Counted from the first letter of the stretch, positions 37,739 through 55,493 are shown. The stretch is DNA of 64,000 nt from an uncultured cyanobacterium (GCA_963744145.1 CAVUSO010000001.1:1248001-1312000), one strand, 5' to 3'. The notes: a model not told the origin generated them from the sequence alone. Numbers and translations are program-made.

Positions 37739-37846
37739 GCTGAAAAAATCACTAAAAAGTTTTTAATGCCAGTCAATTTGTCAAATTTTAACATTTATTG
37801 ACTAACGTTGATTTCCGTTGTCCTCCTCAGCAACACTATTTATTTT

Positions 37847-38545: not shown

Positions 38546-38564
38546 AGTTCTTGCAAAAATAACT

Positions 38565-38800: not shown

Positions 38801-38821
38801 CCCGATAAAGGAGAAAAACTG

Positions 38822-40111
38822 ATGAGTGGTAGTCCAAAACATACCCCAGCAGAGTTAGAAAGACGAAGACAGGAACAGCTAGAAAAAGAACGACAACGTA
38901 AAGCCAAAGAAGAAGCAAGACAAAGAGCAGCAGCAGCAGAGAGAGAAAGACTTCAGCGGTTGGAGACTCTCAGAAACCAGTTAATTGCCCAAGTTCAGGC
39001 GATCGCTTCACAAGTGCAGCAACAACAAAATAATATATATAGTGAGGATGGAACAGCACTCCAGAAACGCTGTCAGAATTTGCGTGATACTCTGGGTCAA
39101 GCCCAAACCGAATCTCAACTCCAGAAGATAGCCCAAGCATCACCTCAGATTGAACAAGATTTGCATAAAGCGGTTAGTCGCAAACGTCGAGATGAGGAGG
39201 AGAAAAAGCGACGGTTAGAATTAGAAAAACAACAGTTTGAACTAGAGGAATTAGAGCGACAAATTTCTCAAATTCCTAAAGCGGATGCAACTAAATTTGA
39301 TGCTAATGGATATGCAACAGTACAGCAAGCAATTGGAACAGTAAAAACCGCGATCGCAAGTAGTAATCCGGAAAGCGTCCGCGCACCCCTAGCTAATGCT
39401 ATAAAAGCATTACAAGATCATACCAATTTAGTAATCCAACATCGAACCGAATGGCTGCAACGTAAAGCTGAAGCGGAACAAGCTATTGGTGAACTTCAAG
39501 CATTTATTGTGGGATTAAGAGCTGATCCAGTAGTGATGCGGTGGCACGGACATACTATAACTGAATTGGAAACTCAAGCACAAACAGCAGTGCAAGCCTT
39601 AGCAGCAGAACAGTTTGAGCAACCCGCCAATATTCTAGCAGTAGCCCAGACGCGAGGACAGCAAATCGTAGAAGAAGCTAATGCCGAGCAAATTAAAGCT
39701 GACCAACGGGATTATATTGCTACCAGTATTGCTCAAACCTTGCAAGACATGGGTTTTATCGTTAGTCCTCCTCAAGCTGAATATGCTGATCATCCAAAAA
39801 CAGCCATGATTTTAAAAGCAGCTACTGCTTCAGGTAAAGGAATTAGTGTCAGTGTTCCAGTAGAAGGTGAAGTCTGGTACGACGTAGATGGATATACCAA
39901 AAGTACCGAAGCAGTTGTTGGTGGTGGTAATGCTGCGGTATGCGATGAAGCGGAACAGGTTTTAACCGATATGCACACTGCTTTAGAGGCAGAATTTGGC
40001 GTTAAAATGGGTGAAATTTCTTGGGAAGGAAAAGACCCTAACCGCAAACCGCGTAAAGCGGATGGACTACCTAATAACGATCAACAGCAGGGTAGAGGAG
40101 GTAATCGATGA
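38822..40111 (+). CDS. Coiled-coil protein with a globular C-terminal domain (unknown function)
   Basis: AAAGGAG SD, MSGSPK start, long Q/E/R-rich heptads, C-terminal LQDMGF...C...FGV; stop overlaps the next ATG. Confidence 0.8.
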   Translation: MSGSPKHTPAELERRRQEQLEKERQRKAKEEARQRAAAAERERLQRLETLRNQLIAQVQAIASQVQQQQNNIYSEDGTALQKRCQNLRDTLGQAQTESQLQKIAQASPQIEQDLHKAVSRKRRDEEEKKRRLELEKQQFELEELERQISQIPKADATKFDANGYATVQQAIGTVKTAIASSNPESVRAPLANAIKALQDHTNLVIQHRTEWLQRKAEAEQAIGELQAFIVGLRADPVVMRWHGHTITELETQAQTAVQALAAEQFEQPANILAVAQTRGQQIVEEANAEQIKADQRDYIATSIAQTLQDMGFIVSPPQAEYADHPKTAMILKAATASGKGISVSVPVEGEVWYDVDGYTKSTEAVVGGGNAAVCDEAEQVLTDMHTALEAEFGVKMGEISWEGKDPNRKPRKADGLPNNDQQQGRGGNR

Positions 40112-42093
40112 ATAGCTCAACTCCCACATCTTCCCGCTGGATTCTCGAATTTGAGAAACAAGTCCATCGCCGTCTGCATATTGTTTTGTATGGTAATATT
40201 CACGACCAGTTTCTCTGGCGCGGTAATTATCAAAATATCCACGAATTTCTCACCGCATACTTTCAAGACTTAAACTTTGAGCTAATTCTTCGGTATGACC
40301 CCATAGATGGGTTTAATTTTGTCAATCCAAAAATGAGACAGGGATTTGATGAATTAGTACGAAGTGGGGTAGCTAAACGGAACCCAGATTTAGGACAAAA
40401 TCCCCCAGTACCTTCACCAGCTCCAAATCCAATGGCACCTCCTCCAAGAGCTAATCCGGGTGCTGTGGGTCCTTCCCTAAATACTAGAGTCTCACCAGAG
40501 GATGCTTTTGGTAATTTGCGAGCTGTCGTATCTCAATCTAAAACTTCAGTAGCTGCAATTGTTGATTTAGGAGATATGCTCACCTCTGATCCAAGTCGCT
40601 ATATTGCTGAAGAGCGAAACGCTTTGGTGTTACTGAATAAATGCACCCTAGAAGCATCTGTGATCAGAGAGGGGGCTTTGAGCGGTTATCGCAATACTTT
40701 GGTGATTTTAGCTAGGGATTTGAAACGGGTGCCAGAGTGGTTTCATCAAAATAATCCCTTTGTCGGGATGGTGCAAATGTCGCGTCCCAATAAAGACGAA
40801 CGATGTCAGTTTATGATGCGTTTTTTCCAGGGATTTTATGAAGGCGATCGCATCAATACTAAACGCTCTTCTCCTCAAGCACCTTCAGAGCTAGAAATTC
40901 TCGCAGAAGAATTTGCTGATCTCACCGAAGGCTTTCGAGCAATGGATTTAGATGCGTTGCGTGCGACTTCTTGGCGTGAGCGCATTCCTCTCCGTGTTAA
41001 AGAAGTCTGGCGGTTAGTGGACTTTTTTAAATTTGGTCTACGGGATGATCCTTGGGAGCAGTTAAGCCCCGAAAAAGTTCGCTCTGCTAGAGAACAACTT
41101 TCTCGCACTGTGATTGGTCAACCTCGTGCAGTTGAATCTGTTACTACTATGCTCACTAGCGCAAGGGTGGGATTGAGCATAAGTAGTAGTGGTCGTAGTG
41201 GCAAACCTAAAGGTATTTTCTTTTTTGTTGGTCCGACAGGAGTTGGCAAAACTGAACTAGCCAAAGCTATGACCAAATTAGTGTTTGGCGATGAGCGATC
41301 GTTTGTCCGTTTTGATATGAGTGAGTACAAAGAAGAACACGCGGCTGAGAAATTAGCAGGCGCTCCTCCCGGTTTTGTGGGTTATGAAGAAGGGGGACAG
41401 CTAACCAATCGCGTGATTGAGCAGCCCTATAGTATTTTGCTGTTTGATGAAATTGAAAAAGCTCATCCCAAGGTGTTAGATAAGTTTTTGCAAATTTTAG
41501 AAGATGGAAGGCTTACTGATGGTAAAGGACAGACTGCTTATTTCAACCAAACTGCAATTATTTTTACTAGCAATATCGGCGCATCGGATTTAACTGATCC
41601 TCAGACAGGTGCGATCGTTCGGTGTGGGATTATGAACAAAGTGCAGCAAGGAAATACTAATGATTTCTCTTACGAAGAGGTAGAAAATCACTTCCGAACT
41701 GAAGTAGATTGGCACTTTACCAGTCGCATTGGTCGGGCGGAACTGCTCAACCGTTTGGGTGATAATATTGTGGTATTTGACTTGCTACGTCCAGATTTTG
41801 TGACTTTAATTGGGCAGAAGTTTTTACGACAACTATCAGATACAGCTCAGGAAAAGTACCGACTCAATTTAAACTTTTTGCCTTCAGTTCTAGATGTTTT
41901 GAGGGTGCGGATGGAACAAGGTAACAATTTACTATTCGGAGGAAGACGGATTAAAACCCTTTTAGAATCATTAGTGGAACGTCCCCTCAATAGTTGGATT
42001 TTTCAAAATTGCCCTGAAACCAGTAAATTAGCAGGGGGCACATTGAGGATTGGGATGACAGTTGATGGATGTTTAGAGGTGACTCATGTTTGA
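40108..42093 (+). CDS. ClpA/B-like AAA+ ATPase with one intact (D2-type) nucleotide-binding domain
   Basis: VIGQ, FFFVGPTGVGKTELAK, RFDMSEY, GAPPGFVGYEEGGQLT, LLFDEIEKAH and DGRLTDGKG motifs; no Walker A in the N-terminal half. Confidence 0.9.
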   Translation: MNSSTPTSSRWILEFEKQVHRRLHIVLYGNIHDQFLWRGNYQNIHEFLTAYFQDLNFELILRYDPIDGFNFVNPKMRQGFDELVRSGVAKRNPDLGQNPPVPSPAPNPMAPPPRANPGAVGPSLNTRVSPEDAFGNLRAVVSQSKTSVAAIVDLGDMLTSDPSRYIAEERNALVLLNKCTLEASVIREGALSGYRNTLVILARDLKRVPEWFHQNNPFVGMVQMSRPNKDERCQFMMRFFQGFYEGDRINTKRSSPQAPSELEILAEEFADLTEGFRAMDLDALRATSWRERIPLRVKEVWRLVDFFKFGLRDDPWEQLSPEKVRSAREQLSRTVIGQPRAVESVTTMLTSARVGLSISSSGRSGKPKGIFFFVGPTGVGKTELAKAMTKLVFGDERSFVRFDMSEYKEEHAAEKLAGAPPGFVGYEEGGQLTNRVIEQPYSILLFDEIEKAHPKVLDKFLQILEDGRLTDGKGQTAYFNQTAIIFTSNIGASDLTDPQTGAIVRCGIMNKVQQGNTNDFSYEEVENHFRTEVDWHFTSRIGRAELLNRLGDNIVVFDLLRPDFVTLIGQKFLRQLSDTAQEKYRLNLNFLPSVLDVLRVRMEQGNNLLFGGRRIKTLLESLVERPLNSWIFQNCPETSKLAGGTLRIGMTVDGCLEVTHV

Positions 42094-43327
42094 TTTGGAA
42101 TTGCTGTGGGATCGACCCGCAAAAATTAGCTCTCAATCGACAACTCATGTGCTGCGATCGCGGATCTATCCTCAATCGGTCGGAAATGCTTTACCTAGCT
42201 TACCCCTACGGATCGCGATCGCTCTCGATACTAGCCAATCAATGCAAGGGGAAAAGCTACAATGTGCTAAGGAAGCTTGCCGTGCGGTTGTTTCTCATTT
42301 ACGTGACACAGATCGCTTATTTCTAGCAGGTTTTTCTACGAGAGTAACACCTTTACTACAATCTCTTACAGGTGGTGCTAATGCTGTTTCATCGGCTAAT
42401 ACAGCGATCGCTAGTTTGCAACCAGAGGGAGTTACTCGCACCGATTTGGCATTAGAATGGATTCAGAATGCCTTACCAAAGGAAACTGGAGTCACAAGAG
42501 TGGGGATTTTGATTACAGATGGTCATGCGACTACTCCCCAAGGTAATCTATTAGATGACGTAACGCCGCTAATTAACCAATCTAGCCAACTGAGTAGTGC
42601 TGGAATTGTGCTGTGTACTGTAGGATTAGGAGATGCAGCTAATTTTAATACAGCTTTTTTAACTGATTTGAGCGACAAGGGAAGGGGTGCGTTTCTCTAT
42701 GCTGACACACCAACTATCCTAAAATCTCTACTCCAAGAAAGACTGGCTGCTTGTCAAGCGATCGCGACGGAAGAAGCTAAACTCCGATTCACTCTAAGTT
42801 CTGGTGTTACCCTCAAAGGTTTTTGTCGTTTCCGTCCCGAATATTTACCTTTGGAAGAAACTGCAAAAAATGAATTAACACTGGGTACGATCGGAACAAA
42901 CTCCCCAACCGATGTATTAATTGACTTAGAAATTCCAGCAAGTGGTTTTGGAGAACCAATGGGTAGTCGAGAAGTAGTTTCAGTCCAGTTAACAGCTAGA
43001 GGAATGACCAACCCGATTACTAAGACAGCAGCGATTACCTATACTAATTCCTACTCAGAAGCGCAAAAAGTTAACGCTGAAGTCAATAACGATCGACTCT
43101 GTTGGGATATTAACGTTTATAGTAATGACCTAACCCGCACTAACGATCCGAAGCGCACAGGAGAATTACTAGATAATATCCAGTTTACAGCTACCCAAGC
43201 CGGACAAGCAAATATTGCGAACCAAGCAGCTCAACAGCTAGATGATCTGAAAAAGACTGGAGTATTGAACCCCCACAAATCAACTGGACTCTTGCGGGAT
43301 TCTCGAAATTTGGGAGGGACAAAATGA
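42086..43327 (+). CDS. von Willebrand factor A domain protein
   Basis: MIDAS DTSQS, ILITDGH and TVGLG motifs. Confidence 0.9.
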   Translation: MFDLELLWDRPAKISSQSTTHVLRSRIYPQSVGNALPSLPLRIAIALDTSQSMQGEKLQCAKEACRAVVSHLRDTDRLFLAGFSTRVTPLLQSLTGGANAVSSANTAIASLQPEGVTRTDLALEWIQNALPKETGVTRVGILITDGHATTPQGNLLDDVTPLINQSSQLSSAGIVLCTVGLGDAANFNTAFLTDLSDKGRGAFLYADTPTILKSLLQERLAACQAIATEEAKLRFTLSSGVTLKGFCRFRPEYLPLEETAKNELTLGTIGTNSPTDVLIDLEIPASGFGEPMGSREVVSVQLTARGMTNPITKTAAITYTNSYSEAQKVNAEVNNDRLCWDINVYSNDLTRTNDPKRTGELLDNIQFTATQAGQANIANQAAQQLDDLKKTGVLNPHKSTGLLRDSRNLGGTK

Positions 43328-43728
43328 ATAGTGGTTTTGGGATCGACCCCATTCCTGGGTTATCTCGACTTACCCCGGATAATGCTAAGTTACTATTATT
43401 AAACGGACCAGCAGCAGCAAGTCGGTTTCCTCTTCATCGAATACGATCGCTGATTGGTCGGAATGATCTACCTTTGATAACAGTAGATATTGATCTAACT
43501 GAATGCGAAATTGGCGATCCAATTGCTATATCTCGTCGTCATGCAGTGATTGAGTGGGTAGAAGGGGAATTACAAATTGTGGATTTGTGCAGTAGGAACG
43601 GTACTTTTGTTGATGGTCAAAAATTGACAGCGATCGCTCCTAATCAACCATCAGCTCCTGTCATTTTAAAAGCGGGAAGTAAGGTAAAACTAGGAAACTT
43701 GGAATTTGAGGTGATCACTCATGGATAA
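43324..43728 (+). CDS. FHA domain protein
   Basis: IGR, ISRRHA and DLCSRNGTFVDG motifs. Confidence 0.93.
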   Translation: MNSGFGIDPIPGLSRLTPDNAKLLLLNGPAAASRFPLHRIRSLIGRNDLPLITVDIDLTECEIGDPIAISRRHAVIEWVEGELQIVDLCSRNGTFVDGQKLTAIAPNQPSAPVILKAGSKVKLGNLEFEVITHG

Positions 43729-44518
43729 GCCGATTGTAAAACTAGCCTACGGTTCCAAAACCGATCCTGGCAAAATTCGTAAAATCAATGAAGATAATCT
43801 TTTATTAGAATCATGGTCAGATGCTTTACTAGCAGTAGTTGCTGATGGAATGGGAGGACATAAAGGAGGAGAGGTAGCAGCCAAAATTGCCGTTGATACT
43901 TTTCGAGAGTTATTAGATCAGCCCTTACCTAAAGAACCTGTTGAACGATACGAACAACTGTTAAAAAAATTTTATGATGCTGATACTGCTATCCGCGAGC
44001 AATCCTCTCAAGAGTTCAGATTGATGGATATGGGAACTACTTTAATGGCAGCGATCGTTACTCCCACAGAATATATTCATCTATATGCTGGTGACTGTCG
44101 TTTATATCACTTCCACCAGGGAGAATTTACTTATATCTCGGCTGATCATTCAGTAGTCAGGATACTGCAAAACTTGGGAAAGATCACCCCAGAAGAAGCA
44201 GCTACTCATCCAATGCGTTCAGTGGTCAACTCCTGTCTAGGTGGTAAGGGAAATACACAATTCTCTGTTGACCCAAAATGGGACGATGAAAAGTTACCTG
44301 TGTTGCGTGAATTATGTCCAGGTGATGTATTACTACTATGCAGCGACGGACTAAATAGCGAAGTAAGTGACAATCAGTTACAAAATTTGGTGCAACAGTC
44401 TGGAAACTCGACCGAAGAACTGACTAAAGCTTGTGCCGAAGCAGCTTTAGAGCATGGTGGTAAAGATAATATTACAGTTATTGCTATTCAGGTACAGGAG
44501 GAAGATCAGCAAAAATAA
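43721..44518 (+). CDS. PP2C/Stp1-type Ser/Thr phosphatase
   Basis: RKINED, VADGMGGH, MGTT, GDCR, CSDGL and GGKDNIT motifs. Confidence 0.95.
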   Translation: MDKPIVKLAYGSKTDPGKIRKINEDNLLLESWSDALLAVVADGMGGHKGGEVAAKIAVDTFRELLDQPLPKEPVERYEQLLKKFYDADTAIREQSSQEFRLMDMGTTLMAAIVTPTEYIHLYAGDCRLYHFHQGEFTYISADHSVVRILQNLGKITPEEAATHPMRSVVNSCLGGKGNTQFSVDPKWDDEKLPVLRELCPGDVLLLCSDGLNSEVSDNQLQNLVQQSGNSTEELTKACAEAALEHGGKDNITVIAIQVQEEDQQK

Positions 44519-44575: not shown

Positions 44576-46000
44576 ATGAACAATGAGCAACTATACCGAC
44601 GAATGTTGGAAGGACAATGGGTCAATGGACAATATCATCTCAAAAAACTCCTGGGAGCAGGAAGTTACGGAGTAGTTTTTCAAGCAGATGAAGTAGTCGG
44701 AAATCGCCTAGTTCGAGAAGTAGCTATTAAACTAATTTCTCCCAATGATGATGATCGCGATCTCCAGCTCCAAGAATTAATTGATGCAGTTAATTTAGAT
44801 CACCCCAATTTAGTGCGATGCTTTACTTCTGGTTTAGTTAAACTCAACGGAGTTGAATTTTTATATTTAGTCATGGAGCTAGCCCAAAAAACTCTCGCTA
44901 AACATTTAGAAAAAAGCTCTTTGTCTGTAGGAGAAGTGCAAAAAATCGTCCAGGAAATTGCTGCTGGATTAGTTTATCTTCATCGTGAACCCCATCCGCG
45001 AGTGCATCGTGATTTGAAACCAGCTAATGTCCTATGGGTAAGCGATCGCTGGAAATTATCAGATTTTGGGTTATTGCGGTCAACTGGTTCTAAGGGTTCA
45101 GCTCGCACCAGTAAAGTTAGGAGAACTGACGGTTATGCTCCCCCAGAAGCTTATCTCGGAGTGGTGGCTCCCACTTGGGATGTGTGGTCATTAGGGGTGA
45201 TCATGGTGGAAATGCTCACGGGACAGCTACCCTTTACAGGAGATACAGAGCAGGAATTGATCGTAAAAGTAATGGACGGAAAACCATCAATCGAATGGTC
45301 AAAAGTCCACCAATCATTCAGAGAGATCATCAAGGGAGCTTTAGAGAAAGAGCGGAAAGACCGATGGACGGCACAAAGGGTGCTGAATACTTTTACCAAA
45401 AAATATCTCCCTCCAACCATCCCATCTATTGTGAGTCCATTTCCTGGGAAAATAGAAATAGGACAGAATCCTTTTACCGCAAAAGGTATCCCTCTATTTG
45501 ACCCAACTCCAAGCATAGTGAGTCAGCCTCCTGTGCAATTGAAGTCAGCAAAAGGGGTAGATTACACTAATTTACAACGCTTACTAGCCGCAGGAAAATG
45601 GAAGGAAGCGGATGAGGAAACAGGCAAAAAAATGTGCGAGGTCATGGGGCGACAAAAAGAAGGTTGGCTAGATGTCGAACATATCGATAATTTTCCCTGT
45701 GAAGACCTTCGCACAATTGATCAACTTTGGGTAAAATCTAGTAACGGTCATTTTGGCTTTTCTGTGCAAAAGCGTATCTATCAAAGTCTCGGTGGAACCC
45801 GGAACTATGATGAGAAAATCTGGGCTGCTTTTGGCGATCGCGTCGGCTGGAGGAAAAATGGAGACTGGATATACTACAGCGACCTCACCTTCTCAACCAA
45901 ATCTCCCGGTGGCCACCTCCCCTTGTGGTGGGGGAAAGGTCCGTGTGTGGTGGTTGGTGCCTCTTCTCTCGCGTCGAGACTTGTAGACTGTAACATATAA
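44576..46000 (+). CDS. Ser/Thr protein kinase-GUN4 domain fusion, copy 1
   Basis: LGAGSYG, VAIK, HRDLKPAN, DFG, APPE; GUN4 motifs WKEADEET, FPCEDLRTIDQLW, SNGHFGFSVQ, GHLP. Confidence 0.93.
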   Translation: MNNEQLYRRMLEGQWVNGQYHLKKLLGAGSYGVVFQADEVVGNRLVREVAIKLISPNDDDRDLQLQELIDAVNLDHPNLVRCFTSGLVKLNGVEFLYLVMELAQKTLAKHLEKSSLSVGEVQKIVQEIAAGLVYLHREPHPRVHRDLKPANVLWVSDRWKLSDFGLLRSTGSKGSARTSKVRRTDGYAPPEAYLGVVAPTWDVWSLGVIMVEMLTGQLPFTGDTEQELIVKVMDGKPSIEWSKVHQSFREIIKGALEKERKDRWTAQRVLNTFTKKYLPPTIPSIVSPFPGKIEIGQNPFTAKGIPLFDPTPSIVSQPPVQLKSAKGVDYTNLQRLLAAGKWKEADEETGKKMCEVMGRQKEGWLDVEHIDNFPCEDLRTIDQLWVKSSNGHFGFSVQKRIYQSLGGTRNYDEKIWAAFGDRVGWRKNGDWIYYSDLTFSTKSPGGHLPLWWGKGPCVVVGASSLASRLVDCNI

Positions 46001-46338
46001 AGCTTACAAAAAATTGTTACATTTTGTAAATACACGATTTCCCACGAAGCCATGCGCCTTCTAGCTTTCCGATACCTGGCACCGACGCCGAGCGAAGTAC
46101 CGACAGTTATTCTGTAGTTTTCTGTAGTATCTGACCCACTACTTCGGGGTTATAACAATTAGCAATGACAAATTTATCAGCCACAGCTAAGATATCTGGA
46201 TTCATTTCCTCAAAATCAGCCCAAGGTAAATTCTTTTCATCTCTTTAATAAGCTCGCGATCGGTGTTGGTGGTGGATGGCGATCGGTGTTTAAAGATTTT
46301 TAATAGGTCGCGATCGGTGTTTCCAATAATCAGTTAAT

Positions 46339-46720
46339 TGTAGGGGCGAAGCATTCGGGCGACAATTAATCGCATAAAACTTTACCCTGAGCGGAGTCGA
46401 AGGGCAGTAATATTATATCCGAATGCTGATGCCGTAGGCATCGCTACGCGAACGCCCTTCTTCGCCGATATCTCCCAAAACATTCTTAATTGAACCGGAT
46501 TGATATATCATTAATTGAACCGGATTTATATATTAATTGAACCGGATTTATATATTAATTGAACCGGGTTTATATATTAATTGAACCGGATTTATATATA
46601 GTTGATCTGTTGGTTGCATAGATGGTGAGGGCAAAGCATTTCGGTAATGGTTTCTTCGTTTCAGCGATAATTTCTTCGCCGAAATGCTTTGCCCCTACAG
46701 GGAACCGAATCGGATTGTGT
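46339..46720. repeat. Composite cassette: REP doublet + 22-25-nt VNTR (5 units) + inverted REP doublet
   Basis: GTAGGGGCGAAGCATTCGG...; (ATTAATTGAACCGGATTTATAT)n; GGGCAAAGCATTTCGG...CCGAAATGCTTTGCCCCTAC. Confidence 0.9.
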
Positions 46721-46920
46721 TTTCTTATATAGATCGATATTAAATATAATAAATGATGTTTTATTGCGATCGCGTTATGTCTTGAATTGGCGGCGATCGC
46801 AGTTAGATAACTAATTAACTGAAACAAGCGATCGCCAATTCCAGTAATCAGAATCTAATCACTATTGTTGGTGGATGGTGATGGCGTTGGCGTGATAATT
46901 TTCATTGACAGTTGAGTTCT

Positions 46921-47185
46921 TTGTAGGGGCGAAGCATTCGGGCGACAATTTATCGCATAAAACCAATAACATTTTATCCGAATGCTTCGCCCTTCTTCGC
47001 CGATATCTCCCAAAACATTCTTAATTGAACCGGGTTTATCTATTAATTGAACCGGATTTATATATAGTTGATCTGTTGGTTTCATGGATGGTGAGGGCAA
47101 AGCATTTCGGTAATGGTTTCTTCGTTTCAACGATAATTTCTTCGCCGAAATGCTTTGCCCCTACAGGGAACCGAATCGGAGTATT
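46921..47185. repeat. Composite REP/VNTR cassette (2 units, no mini-element inserted)
   Basis: Near-identical to 46339-46720. Confidence 0.9.
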
Positions 47186-47375
47186 GTTATATAGATCGAT
47201 ATTAAATATAATAAATGATGTTTAATTGCGATCGCGTTATGTCTTGAATTGGCGGCGATCGCAGTTAGATAAATAATTTTTGTTAAAATTAGAATATTTA
47301 TAGATTTTTGCTTCTTGTAAGTCTATGGATCTATGGGTGTTGATATTTTCGGTTATTCAGGTATATAGTAAAGTT

Positions 47376-47545
47376 AACCATCCGACCTAAACGCATTAAT
47401 ACGAGGGTTTACCATGAGTTTCGACTCACATCGACTCCCAGTGTGCGCTTCCTTCGGTTCCTCCTTTCGACGACCCTCAGAGTAAACGAGCAGGTAAGCG
47501 AACGGGCACACGCAGGTTATGTTTATCCATGTAGGTCGGACTGCG
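47376..47545 (+). ncRNA. Candidate structured non-coding RNA
   Basis: Closed by TCCGACCTA/TAGGTCGGA; internal TGAGT-TTCG-ACTCA hairpin and GTGTGC/GCACAC stem; upstream TTGATA-N18-TATAGT. Confidence 0.45.
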
Positions 47546-47594
47546 ATCGCTCTTAACCGTTTCCTTGAAGTTAACAACAACAAAAACTAAATTT

Positions 47595-47774
47595 ATGGAA
47601 AAAGTTGTATTCAAAACTACTAATAAACAACAACCTACTGACTTTGCTTACTGGCAAAAACAAACGCCTCAAAAACGTTTAGACACTCTCGAACAAATCC
47701 GCCAAGAATATCATCAATATAAATATAATGCTCAACCAAGATTTCAAAGAATTTATACAATTATTAAACGATAA
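47595..47774 (+). CDS. Small protein of the type paired with nucleotidyltransferases (putative antitoxin-like)
   Basis: DFAYWQKQTPQKRLDTLEQIRQEY; overlaps the start of the downstream nucleotidyltransferase remnant. Confidence 0.6.
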   Translation: MEKVVFKTTNKQQPTDFAYWQKQTPQKRLDTLEQIRQEYHQYKYNAQPRFQRIYTIIKR

Positions 47775-47990
47775 TCAGGTTAAATACCTGGTTATTGGTG
47801 GTTATGCTGTGGCAATTCATTAGTTACTTCACCTGATGGAGTAGATTTTCAAACTTGCTATGATTCAAAAATGGAGTTTATTATTGATGAGATGATGATT
47901 AAATTTATCGATCTTGATAATCTCATAAAAAATAAATTAGCATCGGTTAGACTTCAGGATTTGGCAGATTTAGAAAATTTACAGAACTAA
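47728..47990 (+). pseudogene. Internally deleted nucleotidyltransferase (DUF6036-like)
   Basis: MLNQDFKEFIQLLNDNQVKYLVIGGYAVAIH* then, in a shifted frame, GVDFQTCY...LIKNKLASVRLQDLADLENL; the catalytic DxD segment is missing. Confidence 0.7.
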
Positions 47991-48031
47991 TTATTGCACA
48001 ATCAATTTGAATAAATTGAGCGAAAAAGTCT

Positions 48032-49456
48032 ATGAACAATGAGCAACTATGGCGAATGTTAGCAGGAGAATGTGTCAACGGACAATATCACCTCAAAAAA
48101 CTCCTGGGTGTCGGCAGTTACGGCGCAGTTTTTCAAGCAGATGAAGTGGTCGGCGATCGCCTAGTTCGAGAAGTAGCTATTAAGATAATTTCCCCAGATA
48201 ATGATGAAAAAACCCGCGATCGCCAGCTCCAAGAATTGATTGTCGCGGTTAATTTAGATCACCCGAATTTAATCCGTTGTTTTGCTCCAGGGTTAGCTCA
48301 AATTAAAGGATTTGAATTTTTGTATTTGCTAATGGAGTTAGCAGAAGAAACCCTCGCTAAACGTCTAGAAAAAAGTTCTTTGTCATTGGAAGAAGTACAG
48401 AAAATAGTTCAAGAAATAGCTGCCGGATTAGTTTATCTTCATCGTGAACCCCATCCGAAAGTACATCGTGATTTGAAGCCCGCTAATGTACTACGAGTGG
48501 GCGATCGCTGGAAATTATCAGATTTTGGCTTATTGCGCTCAATCGATTCTCAGGGTTCAGCTCGCACTAGTAAAGGTCAGGGAACTAACGGCTATGCTCC
48601 CCCAGAAGCTTATGATGGAGTAGTTGCTCCAGCTTGGGATGTGTGGTCATTAGGAGTAATCATGGTGGAACTGCTCACGGGACAGCTACCCTTTACAGGA
48701 GATACAGAGCAGGAATTGCTCAAAAAAGTAATGGAGGGTAAACCATCAATCGAATGGTCAAAAGTCCACCAATCATTCAGAGAGATGATCAAGGGAGCTT
48801 TAGAGAAAGAGCGGCAAAACCGATGGACGGCAGAAATGGTGCTGAATACTTTTACCAAAAAAGATCTCCCTCCAACTACCCCATCCATTGAGAGTCAGCC
48901 TCCTTTGCAATTGAAGTCAGCAAAAGGAGTAGACTACACTAATTTACAACGCTTACTAGCCGCAGGGAAATGGAAAGAAGCGGATGAGGAAACAAGCAAA
49001 AAAATGTGCGGGGTCATGGGGCGACAAGAAGAAGGTTGGTTAAGAAGCGAAGATATTGATAATTTTCCCTGCGAAGACCTTCGCACAATTGATCAACTTT
49101 GGGTAAAATCTAGTAACGGTCATTTTGGCTTTTCTGTGCAAAAGCGCATCTATCAAAGTCTCGGTGGAACCCGGAACTATGATGAGAAAATTTGGGAAGC
49201 TTTTGGCGATCGCGTTGGCTGGAGGAAAAATGGAGCTTGGATATACTACAGTGACCTCACTTTCTCAACCACTTCTTTGGTGGGCCATATCCCTGGGTTA
49301 CCACTTCTTTGTTTGGAGGGCTATCTCCCTGTTGTATTGGTGGTGAGTGTTTGGATAGGTAAAGAGGTTTTTTGGGTTGTCTCTTCTCTCGCGTCGAGAC
49401 TTGTAGACTCTTCTCCAAGCCAGGCGCATTCTGATTCAGATATCATCCTATTGTAA
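48032..49456 (+). CDS. Ser/Thr protein kinase-GUN4 domain fusion, copy 2
   Basis: Same kinase and GUN4 motifs as copy 1. Confidence 0.93.
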   Translation: MNNEQLWRMLAGECVNGQYHLKKLLGVGSYGAVFQADEVVGDRLVREVAIKIISPDNDEKTRDRQLQELIVAVNLDHPNLIRCFAPGLAQIKGFEFLYLLMELAEETLAKRLEKSSLSLEEVQKIVQEIAAGLVYLHREPHPKVHRDLKPANVLRVGDRWKLSDFGLLRSIDSQGSARTSKGQGTNGYAPPEAYDGVVAPAWDVWSLGVIMVELLTGQLPFTGDTEQELLKKVMEGKPSIEWSKVHQSFREMIKGALEKERQNRWTAEMVLNTFTKKDLPPTTPSIESQPPLQLKSAKGVDYTNLQRLLAAGKWKEADEETSKKMCGVMGRQEEGWLRSEDIDNFPCEDLRTIDQLWVKSSNGHFGFSVQKRIYQSLGGTRNYDEKIWEAFGDRVGWRKNGAWIYYSDLTFSTTSLVGHIPGLPLLCLEGYLPVVLVVSVWIGKEVFWVVSSLASRLVDSSPSQAHSDSDIILL

Positions 49457-49746
49457 TAATACCGTGATCGGTGTTAGGGGTGGATGGTGATCGCAGTTTA
49501 ACGATTTTCAATAATAAGATCGCGATCGGTGTTTCCGGTAATCAAAATCTAATTGCTGTTAGTGGATGGCGATCGCAGGTTGACGATTTTAATAATAAGA
49601 CAATCTTAAATTGAATCAATCTATCATCATAAATTTGGATAATAAATGACATTTAAGCGCGATCGCATTATGTCTTTAATTGCAGGCGATCGCAGTTTAA
49701 CGATTTTCACGGTTGTCGCGATCGGTGTTTCCAATAATCAGTTAAT

Positions 49747-50085
49747 TGTAGGGGCGAAGCATTCGGGCGACAATTAATCGCACAAAACTTTACCCTGAGC
49801 GGAGTCGAAGGGCAGTAACATTATATCCGAATGCTTCGCCCTTCTTCGCCGATATCTCCCAAAACATTCTTAATTGAACCGGATTTATATATCATTAATT
49901 GAACTGGATTTATATATCATTAATTGAACCGGATTTATATATTAATTGAACCGGATTTATATATAGTTGATCTGTTGGTTGCATAGATGGTGAGGGCAAA
50001 GCATTTCGGTAATGGTTTCTTCGTTTCAGCGATAATTTCTTCGCCGAAATGCTTTGCCCCTACAGGGAACCGAATCGGATTGTGT
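49747..50085. repeat. Composite REP/VNTR cassette (4 units)
   Basis: Near-identical to 46339-46720. Confidence 0.9.
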
Positions 50086-50226
50086 TTTCTTATATAGATC
50101 GATATTAAATATAATAAATGATGTTTAATTGCGATCGCATTATGTCTTTAATTGGCGGCGATCGCAGTTAGATAACTAATTATCTGCTAAAATAAGAAAG
50201 AAGTCAACCACTATTAAAGTTCCTCA

Positions 50227-51235
50227 ATGCAAGACAAACCCCGCGCCGACTACGATAGTCCTTGGAAAGAAGCCATTAACAGTTACTTTGAACCTTTCAT
50301 GAATTTTTTCTTTCCGGTCATCCATCAAGAAATCGACTGGACAAAAGGCTATGAAACCTTAGATGCAGACTTACAAGAAGTCGTAAGAGATGCAGAAACG
50401 GGGAATCGTTTAGCCGATAAGCTCGTGAAAGTTTGGTTAAATCATAGCACCCAGGAAATTTTAATCCTGGTGCATATCGAAATCCAAGGAGGAGTAGATC
50501 CGAACTTTGCGAAACGGATGTTTATCTACAATCACCGTTTATTTGACCGATACGATCGAGAAGTGATTAGTTTAGCAGTATTAGGAGATGAGCAAAAATC
50601 CTGGCGTCCCAATAGTTATGGTTATGCAATGTGTGGATTTAGTAGCCAATTGCAGTTTCCCATCGTCAAACTCTTAGACTACCAAGAACAATGGGAGTTG
50701 CTTGAACAAAGCACTAATCCTTTTGCTGTAATTGTCATGGCACATTTAACTGCAAAGGAAACCACCAGAGATCCACAAAGAAGATTACAAGGGAAACTCA
50801 GCATAGTGCGGGGGCTATATGAACGGGGCTATAATAGGGAGGAAATCAAGCGAACTATTTCGGTTAATTGACTGGATGATGGTATTACCAGACCAGCTAG
50901 AACAGGATTTTCGGGTGGAATACAAACGGTTTCAGGAGGAAAATCAAGTGCCATATATCACCAGTATTGAACGTTTAGCGAAAGCAGAAGGTAGAGAAGA
51001 AGGCTTAGAAGAAGGGATCGAACAAGGAATCGAACAAGGAATCGAACGAGGCAGTGTACAAACAGCACAGGAAAATATCATCACAGTGTTGGAGACTAGG
51101 TTTGGAGAAGTACCAGAAATCTTCAGAGAGCGGATTAATCAAATCGAAGATTTAGCCACATTAAGACAACTTCTCATTCGTGGCATTACGATCGCTTCTT
51201 TCGAGGATTTTGAGCAAGAAATCTCTTCAAATTAG
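50227..51235 (+). pseudogene. Rpn-family (PD-(D/E)XK) gene frameshifted near 50848
   Basis: YDSPWKE, ADKLVKV, HIEIQ, RMFIYN, NPFA, then ELFRLIDWMM...PYITSIER...GIEQ repeats in the other frame. Confidence 0.85.
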
Positions 51236-51376
51236 TCACTAGGTTCTAGTTAATTCCCCTATTGGGTTGAGGGGCGATCGCTATTTATCTGCTCTGATAT
51301 AGAGATTTAGATGCGATCGCCTCTTCTCACAAAATACCACCCCGAGACAAATTGAATAAATTGATCGAAAAATCCT

Positions 51377-52699
51377 ATGAACAATGAGCAACTGTGGCGA
51401 ATGTTGACAGGAGAATGTGTCAATGGACAATATCACCTCAAAAAACTCCTGGGCGTCGGCAGTTACGGCGCAGTTTTTCAAGCGGATGAAGTTGTTGGCG
51501 ATCGCTTAATTCGCCAAGTAGCTGTTAAGCTAATTTCTCCAGATGGAGATGATAAAAATCGCGATCGCCAGCTCCAAGAATTAATTACTGCCGTTAATCT
51601 AGATCACCCGAATTTAGTACGCTGCTTTACTTCAGGGTTAGCTGAAATCAAAGGATTTGAATTTTTGTATTTAGTCATGGAGTTAGCAGAAGAAACCCTC
51701 ACCAAAAGTCTTTCAGAAAAAAGCTCTTTGTCTGTGGGAGAAGTGCAAAAAATAGTTGAGGAAATAGCTTCAGCATTGGTTTATCTTCATCATGAACCCG
51801 AGCGGAGAGTACATCGCGATTTGAAACCAGCTAATGTACTAAGAGTAGGCGATCGCTGGAAATTATCAGATTTTAGCTTATTGCGGTCAATCGGTTCTAA
51901 GGGTTCAGCTCGCACCAGTAAAGGTCAGGGAACTAACGGCTATGCTCCTCCAGAAGCTTATGATGGAGTAGTTGCTCCAGCTTGGGATGTGTGGTCATTA
52001 GGAGTAATCATGGTGGAACTGCTCACGGGACAGCCACCCTTTACAGGAGATACAGAGCAGGAATTGATCAAAAAAGTCATGGAGGGTAAACCATCAATCG
52101 AATGGTCAAAAGTCCACCAATCATTCAGAGAGATGATCAAGGGAGCTTTAGAGAAAGAGCGGAAAGACCGATGGACGGCAGAAATGGTGTTGAATACTTT
52201 TAAAGAGCGCCCGACCATATTACCGTCAGCAGATTACCAAAAGTTAGAAAGCTTACTAGCCGCAGGAAAATGGGAAGAAGCTGATCAGGAAACAGCAAAA
52301 AAAATGTGCGCGGTAATGGAGCGAGAAAAAGAAGGTTGGCTAAGACCCGAAGATATTGATAATTTTCCCTGCGAAGACCTTCGCACAATTGATCAACTTT
52401 GGGTACATTATAGCAATGGTCATTTTGGCTTTTCCGTGCAGAAGCGGATCTATCAAAGTCTGGGTGGAACTTGCAACTACGATCAAAACATTTGGACTGC
52501 TCTTGGCGATCGCGTTGGTTGGAGGCAAAATGAACAATGGCTATACTACAATGATCTCACATTCTCAGTCGAAAATTCTCCCGAAGGCCATCTTCCATTG
52601 GGAGTGAGAAAAGCGATTTGGCGCGGTTGTGGTTTTGCAGGTTGGTTTGGTCTTTGTGGCACTTCTCTCGCGTCGAGACTTGGAGATTGTAACATCTAA
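51377..52699 (+). CDS. Ser/Thr protein kinase-GUN4 domain fusion, copy 3
   Basis: Same motifs, but DFG reads DFS and the linker is short. Confidence 0.93.
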   Translation: MNNEQLWRMLTGECVNGQYHLKKLLGVGSYGAVFQADEVVGDRLIRQVAVKLISPDGDDKNRDRQLQELITAVNLDHPNLVRCFTSGLAEIKGFEFLYLVMELAEETLTKSLSEKSSLSVGEVQKIVEEIASALVYLHHEPERRVHRDLKPANVLRVGDRWKLSDFSLLRSIGSKGSARTSKGQGTNGYAPPEAYDGVVAPAWDVWSLGVIMVELLTGQPPFTGDTEQELIKKVMEGKPSIEWSKVHQSFREMIKGALEKERKDRWTAEMVLNTFKERPTILPSADYQKLESLLAAGKWEEADQETAKKMCAVMEREKEGWLRPEDIDNFPCEDLRTIDQLWVHYSNGHFGFSVQKRIYQSLGGTCNYDQNIWTALGDRVGWRQNEQWLYYNDLTFSVENSPEGHLPLGVRKAIWRGCGFAGWFGLCGTSLASRLGDCNI

Positions 52700-52936
52700 G
52701 ACTTTCAGACAATTTTTAGATTTTATGAATACAATATTTTTCACGAAGCCATCTGCTTGATTTCTTTCCGATACCTGAATGATCCACGACTTGGGGGTTA
52801 TAACAATTAGCGATCGCATTTTATCTCTTTGTTAATAAGATTGCGATCGCTGTTTCGGGTAATCAGAATATAATCACTGTTATTGGTGGATGGCGATGGC
52901 GTTGCCGTGATAATTTTCATTGATAGTTCAGTTACT

Positions 52937-53310
52937 TGTAGGGGCGAAGCATTCGGGCGACAATTAATCGCACAAAACTTTACCCTGAGCGTTCCCTGAG
53001 CGGAGTCGAAGGGCGGAGTCGAAGGGCGGAGTCGAAGGGCAGTAATATTATATCCGAATGCTTCGCCCTTCTTCGCCGATATCTCCCAAAACATTCTTAA
53101 TTGAACCGGATTGATATATCATTAATTGAACCGGATTGATATATCATTAATTGAACCGGGTTTATCTATTAATTGAACCGGATTTATATATAGTTGATCT
53201 GTTGGTTTCATCGATGGTGAGGGCAAAGCATTTCGGTAATGGTTTCTTCGTTTGGGCGATAATTTCTTCACCGAAATGCTTTGCCCCTACAGGGAACTGA
53301 ATCGGCTGGT
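52937..53310. repeat. Composite REP/VNTR cassette (4 units) with nested mini-elements
   Basis: Near-identical to the other cassettes; CCCTGAG x2 then GTCGAAGGG x3. Confidence 0.9.
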
Positions 53311-53351
53311 GTTTTCTCCTATAGATCGCTATTAAATTGAATTAATCTATT

Positions 53352-53958
53352 ATGGTTATGCAATGTGTGGATTTAGTAGCCAATTGCAGTTTCCCATCGT
53401 CAAACTCTTAGACTACCAAGAACAATGGGAGTTTTTGGAACAAAGTACCAATCATGAAAGCAGTAATTGTCATGGCACATTTAACAGCAAAGGAAACCAC
53501 CAGAGATCCACAAAGAAGATTACAAGGGAAACTCAGCATAGTGCGGGGACTATATGAACGGGGCTATAATAGGGAGGAAATCAAGCGAACTATTTCGGTT
53601 AATTGACTGGATGATGGTATTACCAGACCAGCTAGAACAGGATTTTCGGGTGGAATACAAACGGTTTCAGGAGGAAAATCAAGTGCCATATATCACCAGT
53701 ATTGAACGTTTAGCCAAAGCAGAAGGTAGAGAAGAAGGCTTAGAAGAAGGGATCGAACAAGGAATCGAACGAGGCAGTGTACAAAATTCACGGGAAAATA
53801 TCATCACGGTGTTGGAGACTAGGTTTGGAGAAGTGCCAGAAATCTTCAGAGAGCGGATTAATCAAATCGAAAATTTAGCCACATTAAGACAACTTCTCAT
53901 TCGTGGCATTACGATCGCTTCTTTCGAGGATTTTGAGCAAGAAATCTCTTCAAATTAG
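53352..53958 (+). pseudogene. 5'-truncated second copy of the Rpn-family gene
   Basis: Near-identical to about 50618-51235, including the same frameshift. Confidence 0.85.
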
Positions 53959-54096
53959 TCACTAGGATCTAGTTAATTCCAATATTGGGTTGAGGAGCGA
54001 TCGCAATTTATCTGCTCTTATATAGAGATTTAGATGCGATCGCCTCTTCTCAAAATACACCCCGATACAAATTGAAGAAATTGAGCGAAAAAGTCT

Positions 54097-55488
54097 ATGC
54101 ACGATCAGCAACTGTGGCGAATCTTAGAAGGAGAATGTGTCAACGGACAATATCATCTCAAAAAACTATTAGGAGTAGGAGGCTTTGGAGGAGTTTTTCA
54201 AGCAGATGAAGTGGTCGGCGATCGCCTAGTTCGAGAAGTAGCTATTAAGCTAATTTCCCCAGATAGTGATGAAAAAAATCGCGATCGCCAGCTCCAAGAA
54301 TTGATTGATGCTGTTAATCTAGATCACCCCAATTTAGTGCGATGCTTTACTTCTGGTTTAGTTGAAATCAAAGGGTTTAAATTTTTGTATTTAGTAATGG
54401 AACTAGCCCAAGAAACCCTGGCTAAACGTCTAGAAAAAAGCTCTTTGTCGGTGGAAGAAGTGCAAAAAATCGTCCAGGAAATCGCTGCTGGATTGGTTTA
54501 TCTTCATCATGAACCCGATCCGAAAGTACATCGCGATTTGAAGCCTGCTAATGTACTAAGAGTAGGCGATCGCTGGAAATTATCAGATTTTGGCTTATTG
54601 CGTTCAATCGGTTCTAAAGGTTCAGCTCGTACCAGTAAAGGTGGGGGAACTTACAGCTATGCTCCCCCAGAAGCTTATGACGGAGTAGTTGCTCCAGCTT
54701 GGGATGTATGGTCATTAGGAGTAATCATGGTGGAAATGCTCACAGGACAGCTACCCTTTACAGGAGATACAGAGCAGGAATTGATCGTAAAAGTAATGGA
54801 GGGTAAACCATCAATCGAATGGTCAAAAGTCCACCAATCATTCAGAGAGATGATCAAGGGAGCTTTAGAGAAAGAGCGGAAAGACCGATGGACAGCAGAA
54901 ATGGTGCTGAATACTTTGACCGGACTAACCCCAACTCGTCCAACAGAAAGCCAGCAGACTGTATCCTTGAAGTCAGCAAAAGGAATAGATTACACTAATT
55001 TACAATGCTTACTAGCCGCAGGGAAATGGGAGGAAGCTGATGAAGAAACATATAAAAAAATGTGCGAGGTCATGGGACGACAAAGAGAAGGTTGGCTAGA
55101 TGTCGAACAGATCGATAATTTTCCTAGTGAAGACCTTCGCACAATTGATCAACTTTGGGTAAAATCTAGTAACGGTCATTTTGGCTTTTCTGTGCAAAAG
55201 CGCATCTATCAAAGTCTGGGTGGAACCCAGAACTATGATCAGACAATTTGGGAAGCTTTTGGCGATCGCATCGGTTGGAGGAAAAATGGATACTGGATAT
55301 CTACCAGTAAACACACCTTCTCAAAGGATTCTCCCGTTGGCCATCTCCCCTCGGCGAGGTGGGGGCGCGATTGGGGTACTATGGTGGCGGCGGCGGCTGT
55401 GTGGGGGTGGCGTTATTTTATCGGGGGGGAAGGGATTTTTGATGGTTTTAAATGTGGGTGGTCTCTTCTCTCGCGTCGAGACTTGTAA
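54097..55488 (+). CDS. Ser/Thr protein kinase-GUN4 domain fusion, copy 4
   Basis: Same motifs; terminates in an alternative frame of the conserved 3' anchor (SLLSRRDL*). Confidence 0.93.
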   Translation: MHDQQLWRILEGECVNGQYHLKKLLGVGGFGGVFQADEVVGDRLVREVAIKLISPDSDEKNRDRQLQELIDAVNLDHPNLVRCFTSGLVEIKGFKFLYLVMELAQETLAKRLEKSSLSVEEVQKIVQEIAAGLVYLHHEPDPKVHRDLKPANVLRVGDRWKLSDFGLLRSIGSKGSARTSKGGGTYSYAPPEAYDGVVAPAWDVWSLGVIMVEMLTGQLPFTGDTEQELIVKVMEGKPSIEWSKVHQSFREMIKGALEKERKDRWTAEMVLNTLTGLTPTRPTESQQTVSLKSAKGIDYTNLQCLLAAGKWEEADEETYKKMCEVMGRQREGWLDVEQIDNFPSEDLRTIDQLWVKSSNGHFGFSVQKRIYQSLGGTQNYDQTIWEAFGDRIGWRKNGYWISTSKHTFSKDSPVGHLPSARWGRDWGTMVAAAAVWGWRYFIGGEGIFDGFKCGWSLLSRRDL

Positions 55489-55493
55489 ACATC

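Follow-up and report, generated by a model that had tools for sequence, protein, structure and literature searches.

A hypervariable G/T-rich cassette in the ligand loop of cyanobacterial GUN4 domains is linked to a conserved element and a convergent RAYT gene

Many GUN4-domain genes of cyanobacteria were found to end in hypervariable cassettes linked to a conserved DNA element and a RAYT gene, and no distant template for the cassettes was detected in the genome analysed. The arrangement may be viewed as a module of three parts: a GUN4-domain gene in which a replaceable cassette forms the last ligand-binding loop; an element of fixed length (122-123 nt) with a short tail, a stop in every frame and TACCTGGCAC at its end; and a convergent gene for a HUH tyrosine nuclease of the RAYT/TnpA_REP type. 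Judging from sequence comparisons, this nuclease is the likely cause of the rewriting, and RAYT-directed nicking followed by error-prone patch repair is proposed, with moderate confidence, as the way in which the cassette is rewritten.

Results

The kinase-GUN4 locus

The window, a stretch of 64,000 nt from an uncultured cyanobacterium, contains four genes that an initial annotation had taken for kinase-GUN4 paralogs, and Pkinase and GUN4 domains are present in all four (Table 1). Alignment bore out the anchors placed at 45911, 49283, 52586 and 55339 as well as the sites of reconvergence, and the segment lengths and G+T counts were reproduced. The conserved block, annotated as 21 nt, is actually a 122-nt element.

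Table 1 Features of the kinase-GUN4 locus
Feature	Position	Strand	Basis or remark
Upstream gene run: radical-SAM (4Fe-4S), protein without Pfam match, AAA ATPase, vWA, FHA, PP2C phosphatase	37808..44518	+	
Kinase-GUN4 gene 1, 474 aa	44576..46000	+	Pkinase and GUN4 domains
Upstream anchor, copy 1 (GHLP codons)	45911..45922	+	Anchor alignment
Variable cassette 1, 39 nt, G+T 32/39	45923..45961	+	First residue matches Synechocystis GUN4 position 209
Element of copy 1, complete, 122 nt	45961..46082	+	90 bits against a model built without copy 1
TACCTGGCAC, right end of copy 1 element (left end: three-frame tail)	46073-46082	+	
C-terminal remnant of convergent RAYT/TnpA_REP-type gene	46119..46229	-	tblastn
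Kinase-GUN4 gene 2, 474 aa	48032..49456	+	Pkinase and GUN4 domains
Variable cassette 2, 87 nt, G+T 65/87	49295..49381	+	
Element of copy 2, truncated, left 29 nt only	49381..49409	+	Element model
Kinase-GUN4 gene 3, 440 aa	51377..52699	+	Pkinase and GUN4 domains
Variable cassette 3, 63 nt, G+T 49/63	52598..52660	+	
Element of copy 3, nearly full, right motif cut short	52662..52777	+	Model positions 3-118
Ten-codon remnant resembling RAYT C-terminal ANCYNP motif	52782..52811	-	Comparison with RAYT alignment
Kinase-GUN4 gene 4, 463 aa; tail in different frame (SLLSRRDL)	54097..55488	+	Pkinase and GUN4 domains
Variable cassette 4, 113 nt, G+T 88/113	55351..55463	+	
Element of copy 4, truncated, left 28 nt only	55463..55490	+	Element model

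Cassette 2, in which 42 of the distal 51 nt are G or T by hand count, repeats 12 nt of its upstream flank in direct orientation. No population variants of this cassette were seen at a depth of about 7, and a public contig covering 49076-49590 showed 0 differences, a match that is not independent because its run may be the assembly source. The upstream gene run is the likely signalling context of the kinases. With their decayed elements and RAYT remnants, the four variants of the window are probably a frozen archive; a near-complete RAYT gene is present elsewhere in the genome, but it stops about 15 codons too soon and has no GUN4 gene adjoining.

The core fold resembles canonical GUN4 (TM 0.77-0.81), and the alignment extends to GHLP. 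There the cassette substitutes for the stretch holding Leu210, Arg214 and Arg217, the porphyrin-binding loop; a position at the GUN4 pocket had been raised for checking in the initial annotation. The canonical GUN4 of this genome retains LTNQLRG. Docking places the three residues on the porphyrin, and mutants support this for Arg214 (PMC1084334). Since the cassette replaces this stretch, porphyrin binding is likely lost or altered in the cassette GUN4s.

Cassettes in the whole genome

The GUN4 inventory of this genome comprised 54 matches, of which 50 were read and 45 analysed, the canonical GUN4 and four fragments being dropped. Copies with the anchor within 9 mismatches were considered cassette copies. 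G/T-rich cassettes of variable length with the anchor were present at 34 of the 45 GUN4 ends, and the search for anchored segments suggested from the window thereby revealed a genome-wide pattern beyond chance. In these 34 copies, cassette length varied from 30 to 158 nt, with all three length classes modulo 3 represented. The pooled composition was G.43, T.33, A.14 and C.09, compared to A.34, T.27, G.23 and C.16 in the domain body. It was nearly the same across codon positions 1-3, without codon periodicity, and the glycine codons GGG and GGA occurred at 155:48 in cassettes versus 42:127 in domains, a synonymous shift. The G/T bias tracks the gene strand on either chromosome strand (12 copies on +, 22 on -) and appears to originate at the DNA level.

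In-frame stops were detected in 5 of 83 cassettes, while shuffles yielded 35.5 +/- 3.8. Stops being far rarer than in shuffles, selection evidently purges them, and the low A content, previously suggested as a guard against stops, is insufficient alone. Direct copies of upstream DNA were in excess in the cassettes (6.48 vs 6.03 +/- 0.10 nt); inverted copies were not. Internal repeats in GUN4 cassettes were not in excess (6.82 vs 6.58 +/- 0.21; 6.07 vs 5.86 +/- 0.20), with 8 loci showing obvious duplications left out of the 'others' set, and plain tandem slippage was rejected on these grounds. A bias arising through loss of C|T cut sites was also rejected: AG is depleted in this genome (z -4.1), whereas 41 other loci show no such deficit (z -0.1).

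The downstream element and the RAYT gene

Behind the cassette lies the element, conserved DNA with TACCTGGCAC as its right end, followed by the convergent RAYT gene. Among the best 80 of 325 matches, the element could be parsed in 63 loci and measured 122-123 nt in 59 of them; its ends are invariant across loci. The CT-rich left edge is sharp, at an invariant T with a C before it in 37 of 49 loci; in 48 of 60 elements every frame is closed by a stop within 45 nt. The right motif is kept in only 7 of the 34 cassette copies of this genome. These 7 were not more G/T-rich than the rest (G+T 0.76 vs 0.79, p = 0.24, 34 copies), and the idea that an intact element gives purer G/T was rejected. Even internal tandem copies that retain no more than about 27 nt of the element have wholly different cassettes.

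No hairpin or RNA fold is conserved in the element (consensus energy -0.13 kcal/mol with one strand folded; no compensatory pairs in the strand-independent covariation test), and Rfam gave 0 matches in 6 loci. In HUH transposases that have been characterised, binding is to hairpins (PMC6006769), and the hairpin-free element counts against RAYT-directed nicking in this respect. GTAG palindromes occur in the spacers of the window, with no established tie to this RAYT clade.

In the initial annotation no machinery was visible in the window, but RAYT/HUH remnants are located there (Table 1). An intact gene faces the GUN4 end in 74 of the 75 loci with at least 900 nt downstream (best 80 of 325 matches), a count that began from a GUN4-adjacent query and includes related, non-independent genomes. 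The partner gene has a PF01797 core with HUH and catalytic Tyr motifs. Of the best 80 of 325 matches, 75 have an open reading frame above 230 aa, 77 the HUH motif and 76 the Tyr motif. Subclass 2.1 motifs and the C-terminal extension are present by inspection against the published table, not by the authors' profiles. The structure model is of low confidence (pLDDT 53; residues 117-224 below 50), too weak to speak for or against an extra domain, and its fold matches, IS200 and 4ER8, had weak E-values. Identities of RAYT, element and GUN4 vary together across 43 loci (Mantel r 0.37-0.47, p 0.001). Apart from an antisense shadow of RAYT, other families recur beside the module in at most 6 of 80 loci. 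No phage copy of RAYT was confirmed in one scan of viral contigs, and a 64-aa RAYT remnant gave only sub-threshold leads against the Atlas.

By record titles, full-length RAYT genes beside GUN4 genes are found, for example, in Nodosilinea nodulosa PCC 7104 and Cylindrospermum NIES-4074. Of 60 other genomes with GUN4 that were searched, 10 yielded a stop-free, near-full-length RAYT, and one genome (G005) contains cassettes with no RAYT match at E <= 1e-10. The small number of such genes and the fact that truncated element copies still differ count against the proposed mechanism.

A sister RAYT clade in picocyanobacteria

A sister clade, 48% identical to the GUN4-facing clade and placed beside it on a FastTree tree with joint support of 0.886, also has TACCTGGCAC in 76 of 78 loci. 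It faces other variable gene ends, Nif11 precursors among them. The variable segments show no G/T bias, and RAYT alone is therefore insufficient to explain it; direct copies of upstream DNA are in excess (7.62 vs 6.65 +/- 0.12 nt). In four contigs with a 765-nt RAYT showing 0 differences, a patch at a distance of about 105-170 nt from the motif occurs in three alleles; being 3' of the stop codon, it is free of peptide selection. L194 has its target region in common with L181 but differs in RAYT (713 of 765) and was left out of this count.

Laurenceau et al. (bioRxiv 10.1101/2020.03.09.984088) described tnpA_REP facing procA, encoding prochlorosin precursors, in marine picocyanobacteria and proposed that the transposase causes procA variation, a causal claim withdrawn in a post-submission note. 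They found the nearest relatives in other cyanobacteria not to be beside lanthipeptide genes and called the association unique. Their main text names no GUN4 partner and no TACCTGGCAC; the supplements may show GUN4 neighbours. The GUN4 loci add a second target family, unrelated to the first, in which enzyme clade, layout and motif recur; such comparative support was not available in that main text.

That the sister-clade patch can sit in non-coding DNA would suit a selfish, site-specific mobile unit of RAYT and element on GUN4 3' ends, the variable stretch being a tolerated scar of cutting and repair. RAYT remnants and truncated elements are indeed common beside GUN4 copies, and the 54 GUN4 matches attest to numerous paralogs. 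However, a second transposon end is lacking, since TACCTGGCAC occurred within 400 nt upstream of RAYT in 0 of 80 loci (best 80 of 325 matches), and no conserved sequence upstream of RAYT was apparent by eye. The three-frame tail and the strong purge of stops indicate that products are kept functional, and the covariation of RAYT, element and GUN4 also argues against a selfish unit, though shared descent alone could yield it. Overall, this explanation is considered rather unlikely.

Comparison of orthologous loci

Five ortholog pairs passed the 85% filter, three with the element and two of canonical GUN4, and two further element-less pairs were compared by eye at the protein level. Cassettes were unrelated between pairs whose flanks are 96-99% identical: RAYT and element identities were 99% and 98% for L113/L115, 96% and 98% for L083/L084, and 97% and 99% for L079/L110. 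GUN4 tails without the element, paired between the same genomes, were alignable (L238/L250, L260/L261, L244/L255, L281/L285). Among the pairs compared, hypervariability is confined to element-bearing copies. Segments that are the same in orthologs, or change no faster than the gene, were not what was found, and near-identical orthologs with unrelated cassettes uphold the earlier proposal that a fixed site is targeted by hypervariation which changes length and is not of the DGR type.

Within one genome, two contigs (L280, L282) have related cassettes differing in small patches, as might be produced by slippage in a G/T tract tolerated by a floppy loop and a frame-proof tail, with no dedicated enzyme and RAYT as a bystander. 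Truncated copies equal full ones in G/T richness, and a two-letter tract would offer many microhomologies, both in keeping with slippage. Yet slippage should leave internal repeats, which are not in excess, and between the same genomes the tails that lack the element are conserved. It leaves unexplained the 74/75 linkage, the fixed 122-123-nt spacing and the same motif facing unrelated variable ends without G/T bias, and appears very improbable.

Search for templates and polymerases

The longest matches of cassettes elsewhere in the genome averaged 15.06 nt versus 14.77 +/- 0.19 nt in shuffles, and uptake of sequence from other parts of the genome was rejected since matches are not in excess. 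An A-rich or adenine-only template, looked for as previously suggested, was not found: an A-rich stretch upstream of the element was absent from all element matches, 30-nt windows of 80% A were missing from the + strand of contig C1 (its other strand has three pyrimidine-type windows), and A-only template scores equalled those of single-shuffle controls. A DGR target was rejected, as no repeat differing only at adenines was detected, length is not conserved and variable regions are unalignable; because no template was found, the system is not regarded as a DGR. Three RVT_1 matches are present in the genome, one cas-adjacent near a CRISPR-like array, one Drt5, and one truncated, which we take to be a DGR-type reverse transcriptase. 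An intact DGR reverse transcriptase was neither linked nor among these three matches, and no polymerase or reverse transcriptase gene recurs next to the module among 80 loci.

An RT-like or terminal-transferase enzyme acting in trans, as first supposed, or an unusual DGR could write the cassette with no role for RAYT. The cassettes appear random and two-lettered, RT-family polymerases independent of a template are reported to exist, and the three RVT_1 matches supply candidates. This idea is opposed by the lack of a template, of an A-rich stretch and of codon periodicity, by A-only scores at control level and by the failure of reverse transcriptases to recur near the module. Non-templated addition, as initially proposed, is still a conjecture: no polymerase gene recurs, some cassettes copy neighbouring DNA, and sister segments are not G/T-biased. 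An enzyme of this kind is given little credence, but a polymerase may serve as the fill-in step of the RAYT mechanism.

Discussion

Proposed mechanism and significance

In RAYT-directed rewriting, the explanation favoured here, RAYT would bind the TACCTGGCAC end of the element and introduce a single-strand nick at the opposite, CT-rich left edge, some 120 nt from there. Trimming, short copying of neighbouring DNA and error-prone fill would then rewrite the loop patchwise before rejoining, and selection would remove in-frame stops. Host polymerase, or repeated copying inside a two-letter tract, are candidate sources of the G/T bias. TnpA_REP of E. coli cuts at C|T and also performs strand transfer (PMC3333891).

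More tentatively, and with a chance put at slightly below even, a domesticated HUH transposase and a portable TACCTGGCAC-ended cis-element could constitute a general RT-free, template-free generator of junction-like random loops in facing gene ends. If true, larger cyanobacteria would use it on the pockets of GUN4 sensors, and picocyanobacteria on various tips, lanthipeptide cores among them. Such a generator would provide a host function for group-1 RAYTs, an explanation of prochlorosin diversity and possibly a retargeted mutagenesis tool, and it would represent, besides DGRs, a bacterial length-changing, antibody-junction-like diversifier aimed at a sensor-domain pocket. GUN4 occurs on kinases and conflict-system proteins, and the cassette system would mean sensor diversification without a reverse transcriptase if RAYT is causal. 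Two questions are touched upon, the diversification of prochlorosin cores and the persistence of RAYTs, which are retained like housekeeping genes without known host benefit, as stated in one study (PMC5581495). The idea is directly testable because the cis-element, the likely cut position and strains with a full-length RAYT beside GUN4 are named.

Comparison with known systems

No published GUN4-RAYT cassette was found in the literature searched, most subscription papers being outside its scope. Canonical GUN4, the Mg-chelatase cofactor (PDB 1Y6I, 4XKB), has a similar core fold, but the Arg214/Arg217 loop is absent here. Cyanobacterial DGRs (PMC7517822, PMC7159879) likewise diversify a C-terminal ligand-binding tip; the tip belongs to multi-domain kinases and to proteins of conflict systems, whose paralogs are dispersed. 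In the present system, by contrast, GUN4 takes the place of the C-type lectin fold as target, lengths vary without regard to frame, and template repeat, A-specific rule and linked reverse transcriptase are missing.

With REPtrons (E. coli TnpA_REP/RAYT; PMC3333891, PMC6006769), the HUH-Tyr core PF01797 is shared, and the C|T cut distant from the binding site, with strand transfer (PMC3333891), is proposed here likewise. Unlike in REPtrons, the element contains no GTAG-tagged REP hairpin or conserved fold, and the partner is a coding 3' end instead of intergenic repeats. TIRYT/TnpA_Y1 subclass 2.1 (PMC3733652, PMC6006769) has in common the NH[VI]H, FW and YIHxNP motifs, a size of about 250 aa, the C-terminal extension and the absence of REP; it differs in its flanking inverted repeat, the motif being downstream only in the present loci (0/80 upstream).

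Most similar in layout are the tnpA_REP-procA loci, with the same RAYT subclass (group 1 / 2.1), tail-to-tail arrangement, conserved spacer, full as well as C-terminal-remnant copies, and a facing gene with an indel-rich variable 3' end; TACCTGGCAC was found in both clades by this analysis. The facing gene is a GUN4 fusion here, while Nif11-leader precursors occur in the sister clade only. The GUN4 module, in addition, has a strong G/T bias, a three-frame tail and a hairpin-free spacer, and its target is a sensor loop inside a folded domain, whereas that of procA is a peptide core.

Variable cassettes at GUN4 gene ends

Alignment of the four Ser/Thr kinase-GUN4 genes of the window extends across the GH[L/I]P codons, breaks off after them, and resumes at a downstream anchor. 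The intervening cassettes comprise 39, 87, 63, and 113 nt with G+T counts of 32/39, 65/87, 49/63, and 88/113, and this recount bore out the lengths and the G/T richness reported in the initial annotation. In the whole genome, 54 GUN4 matches were detected, of which 50 were read and 45 analysed, the canonical gene and four fragments being left out. An anchor and a cassette of 30 to 158 nt were present at 34 of these 45 ends, and the composition of the 34 cassettes was G.43, T.33, A.14, and C.09. Since the G/T bias is equal across all codon positions, alters synonymous codon use, and tracks the gene strand, it arises in the DNA. Stop codons are contained in 5/83 cassettes versus 35.5 +/- 3.8 in shuffles, and selection at the protein level mainly consists in the removal of stops. 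One gene of the genome under study (C1:7458283-7460436) has four tandem GUN4 units with near-identical flanks and four different cassettes, each unit carrying only about 27 nt of the conserved element that follows the cassettes.

The match to solved GUN4 stops at GHLP plus one residue, and the cassette occupies the place of Leu210, Arg214, and Arg217, which one study links to porphyrin binding (PMC1084334). A structure model of copy 1 reached a pLDDT of 89, but 63-66 across the cassette, after which a final helix starts at the anchor. GUN4 is named among effector/sensor domains of cyanobacterial conflict systems in two papers (PMC7159879, PMC8195603), and we infer that cassette variants may sense invader or metabolite ligands.

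Coordinates of features in the window and elsewhere in the genome
Feature	Location	Strand	Remarks
Radical-SAM, unknown, AAA ATPase, vWA, FHA, PP2C gene run	window 37808-44518		immediately 5' of kinase-GUN4 array
Ser/Thr kinase-GUN4 fusions (four)	window starts 44576, 48032, 51377, 54097		
RAYT remnants	window 46119-46229 and 52782-52811		
ParE-family toxin gene	window 55865-56170	-	bacterial toxin-antitoxin type; just past gene 4
RAYT copy of the genome	L116:8692-9447	-	8-residue insertion in GHFWEKRY motif; stop about 15 codons early
RT gene, cas-adjacent	L001:7612-15100		range includes the genes that follow and a CRISPR-like repeat array
Drt5 antiviral reverse transcriptase	L002:6608-8089	-	intact; 659 bits, cut-off 550
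Truncated RT	L003:7150-7830		

The gene run preceding the array has the look of an operon for phospho-signalling or conflict; the neighbours of kinase-GUN4 genes at another locus (L032) include some of the same gene types. Split or partial ORFs without Pfam match lie between the kinase genes (window 50227-51235 and 53554-53958) and presumably resemble the Rpn-type putative transposase/nuclease genes frequent in cyanobacteria. Palindromic repeats with a GTAG tag occur together with short tandem repeats in the spacers between the four genes (window about 46340, 46925, 49748, and 52938); as judged by contig depth, they are high-copy in the genome.

A conserved element and a facing RAYT gene

A DNA search in 30 other genomes revealed that the non-coding DNA 3' of the anchor is conserved across families. 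Behind this element, the 3' end of a gene is found on the opposite strand, which in relatives is intact and specifies a Y1_Tnp protein of roughly 250 aa (RAYT/TnpA_REP-type HUH). Of 325 relatives, the best 80 were compared: the RAYT faced a GUN4 end in 74 of the 75 loci with enough downstream DNA, its catalytic motifs were intact in 76-77 of 80 loci, and the spacer element could be parsed in 63/80, measuring 122-123 nt in 59 of those. The element ends are nearly invariant, TACCTGGCAC being the end closest to the RAYT. The left end encodes a short tail, with stops in all three frames in 48/60 rows. The element showed neither a conserved fold nor covariation and matched no Rfam family. An inverted copy of the motif was found upstream of the RAYT in none of the 80 loci, and no other gene family recurred beside the module.

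The genome under study harbors one near-full RAYT of the GUN4-facing clade, without an adjacent GUN4 gene. A variant motif downstream of it and a similar one after the GUN4 copy at C1:416564 hint at a putative lineage-specific sub-element. Three GUN4-element units are present within 20 kb in another genome (L120, G095), two with an intact RAYT directly behind the element and with a RAYT fragment nearby; the array is expanding, and the locus is well suited to testing.

Cassette turnover and its possible sources

The initial annotation had proposed hypervariation of a non-DGR kind. In the ortholog pairs L113/L115, L083/L084, and L079/L110, RAYT and element are 96-99% identical and the cassettes are unrelated, whereas tails of element-less GUN4 genes from the same genome pairs are alignable (two pairs of canonical genes and, compared by eye, two of paralogs). 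Because near-identical orthologs differ in this way, the segments are neither identical between orthologs nor as slowly diverging as the rest of the gene, and the proposal was not refuted.

The DGR reading was rejected: a template was not found, and the three reverse transcriptases of the genome are a cas-adjacent one, Drt5, and a truncated one. Long cassette matches elsewhere in the genome were not found (15.06 versus 14.77 +/- 0.19 nt), and in the search for a template differing only at adenines the scores of the four cassettes in the window were similar to those of single shuffled controls. All 22 element matches with E < 0.2 were located at GUN4 ends, one of them adjoining a GUN4 fragment, and none was preceded by A-rich DNA. 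We take genes after the cas-adjacent RT to be cas1- and cas2-like and the truncated RT to be of the DGR type. Nine FGE-sulfatase matches are present in the genome, and these genes may be former DGR targets. A reverse transcriptase or a transferase acting alone appears quite improbable as the source of the cassettes.

The likeliest mechanism, which we favor with moderate confidence and every step of which we infer, is RAYT-directed nicking and rewriting of the loop. The RAYT would bind the element at the far end and nick close to the left edge, and trimming, local copying, and error-prone fill would rewrite the loop. Conservation at the left edge begins at a T in 49/49 loci, preceded by a C in 37. 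This recalls TnpA_REP of E. coli, for which C|T cleavage at a distance is described (PMC3333891). Significant direct copies in the cassettes stem from the upstream flank in 5/83 and from the anchor in 3/83, and an inverted copy of the upstream flank occurs in none of the 83. Several findings speak against the RAYT mechanism. The right motif is kept in only 7/34 copies of this genome, and G/T is no higher there; only 10/60 other GUN4-bearing genomes yielded a near-full RAYT free of stops; the element lacks a hairpin; and the sister clade does not share the G/T bias. That the module is a selfish mobile unit, the variable stretch representing scars left behind, is rather unlikely. Slippage without any enzyme is considered very unlikely.

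Relation to the picocyanobacterial system

In a FastTree analysis of 61 sequences, including 30/75 GUN4-clade and 25/68 sister-clade proteins, RAYTs of picocyanobacteria formed the sister clade to the GUN4-facing RAYTs, with 48% identity. The sister RAYT is present in 33/251 genomes searched, is followed by the same TACCTGGCAC motif in 76/78 assessable loci, and faces variable gene ends other than GUN4. Pattern sorting of 71 distinct loci yielded 26 targets that end after an RDVRVHD-type motif and 13 of the Nif11 type; two smaller kinds accounted for seven loci, and 25 fitted no pattern. One precursor was confirmed as Nif11. Targets other than Nif11 precursors (L118, L128-L237) include a 335-aa protein without Pfam match, with a variable tail after RDVRVHD, short peptides with a GPS end, and proteins that are presumably PEP-CTERM-like. 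The variable segments of the sister clade are without G/T bias, and both direct copies of adjacent DNA and internal repeats are in excess in them. In four contigs with identical RAYTs, a patch located 3' of the precursor stop, at about 105-170 nt from the motif, occurs as three alleles; these come from assemblies and may reflect misassembly.

In the literature covered, no published report of the GUN4 form or of the shared motif was found. The sister system is the association of tnpA_REP with procA described by Laurenceau et al. (10.1101/2020.03.09.984088), who put it forward as a diversifier, termed it unique to picocyanobacteria, and in a later note left the causal role of the transposase undecided. 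For the RAYT family and the layout, this one hedged preprint on a kind of system that is itself unproven is the precedent.
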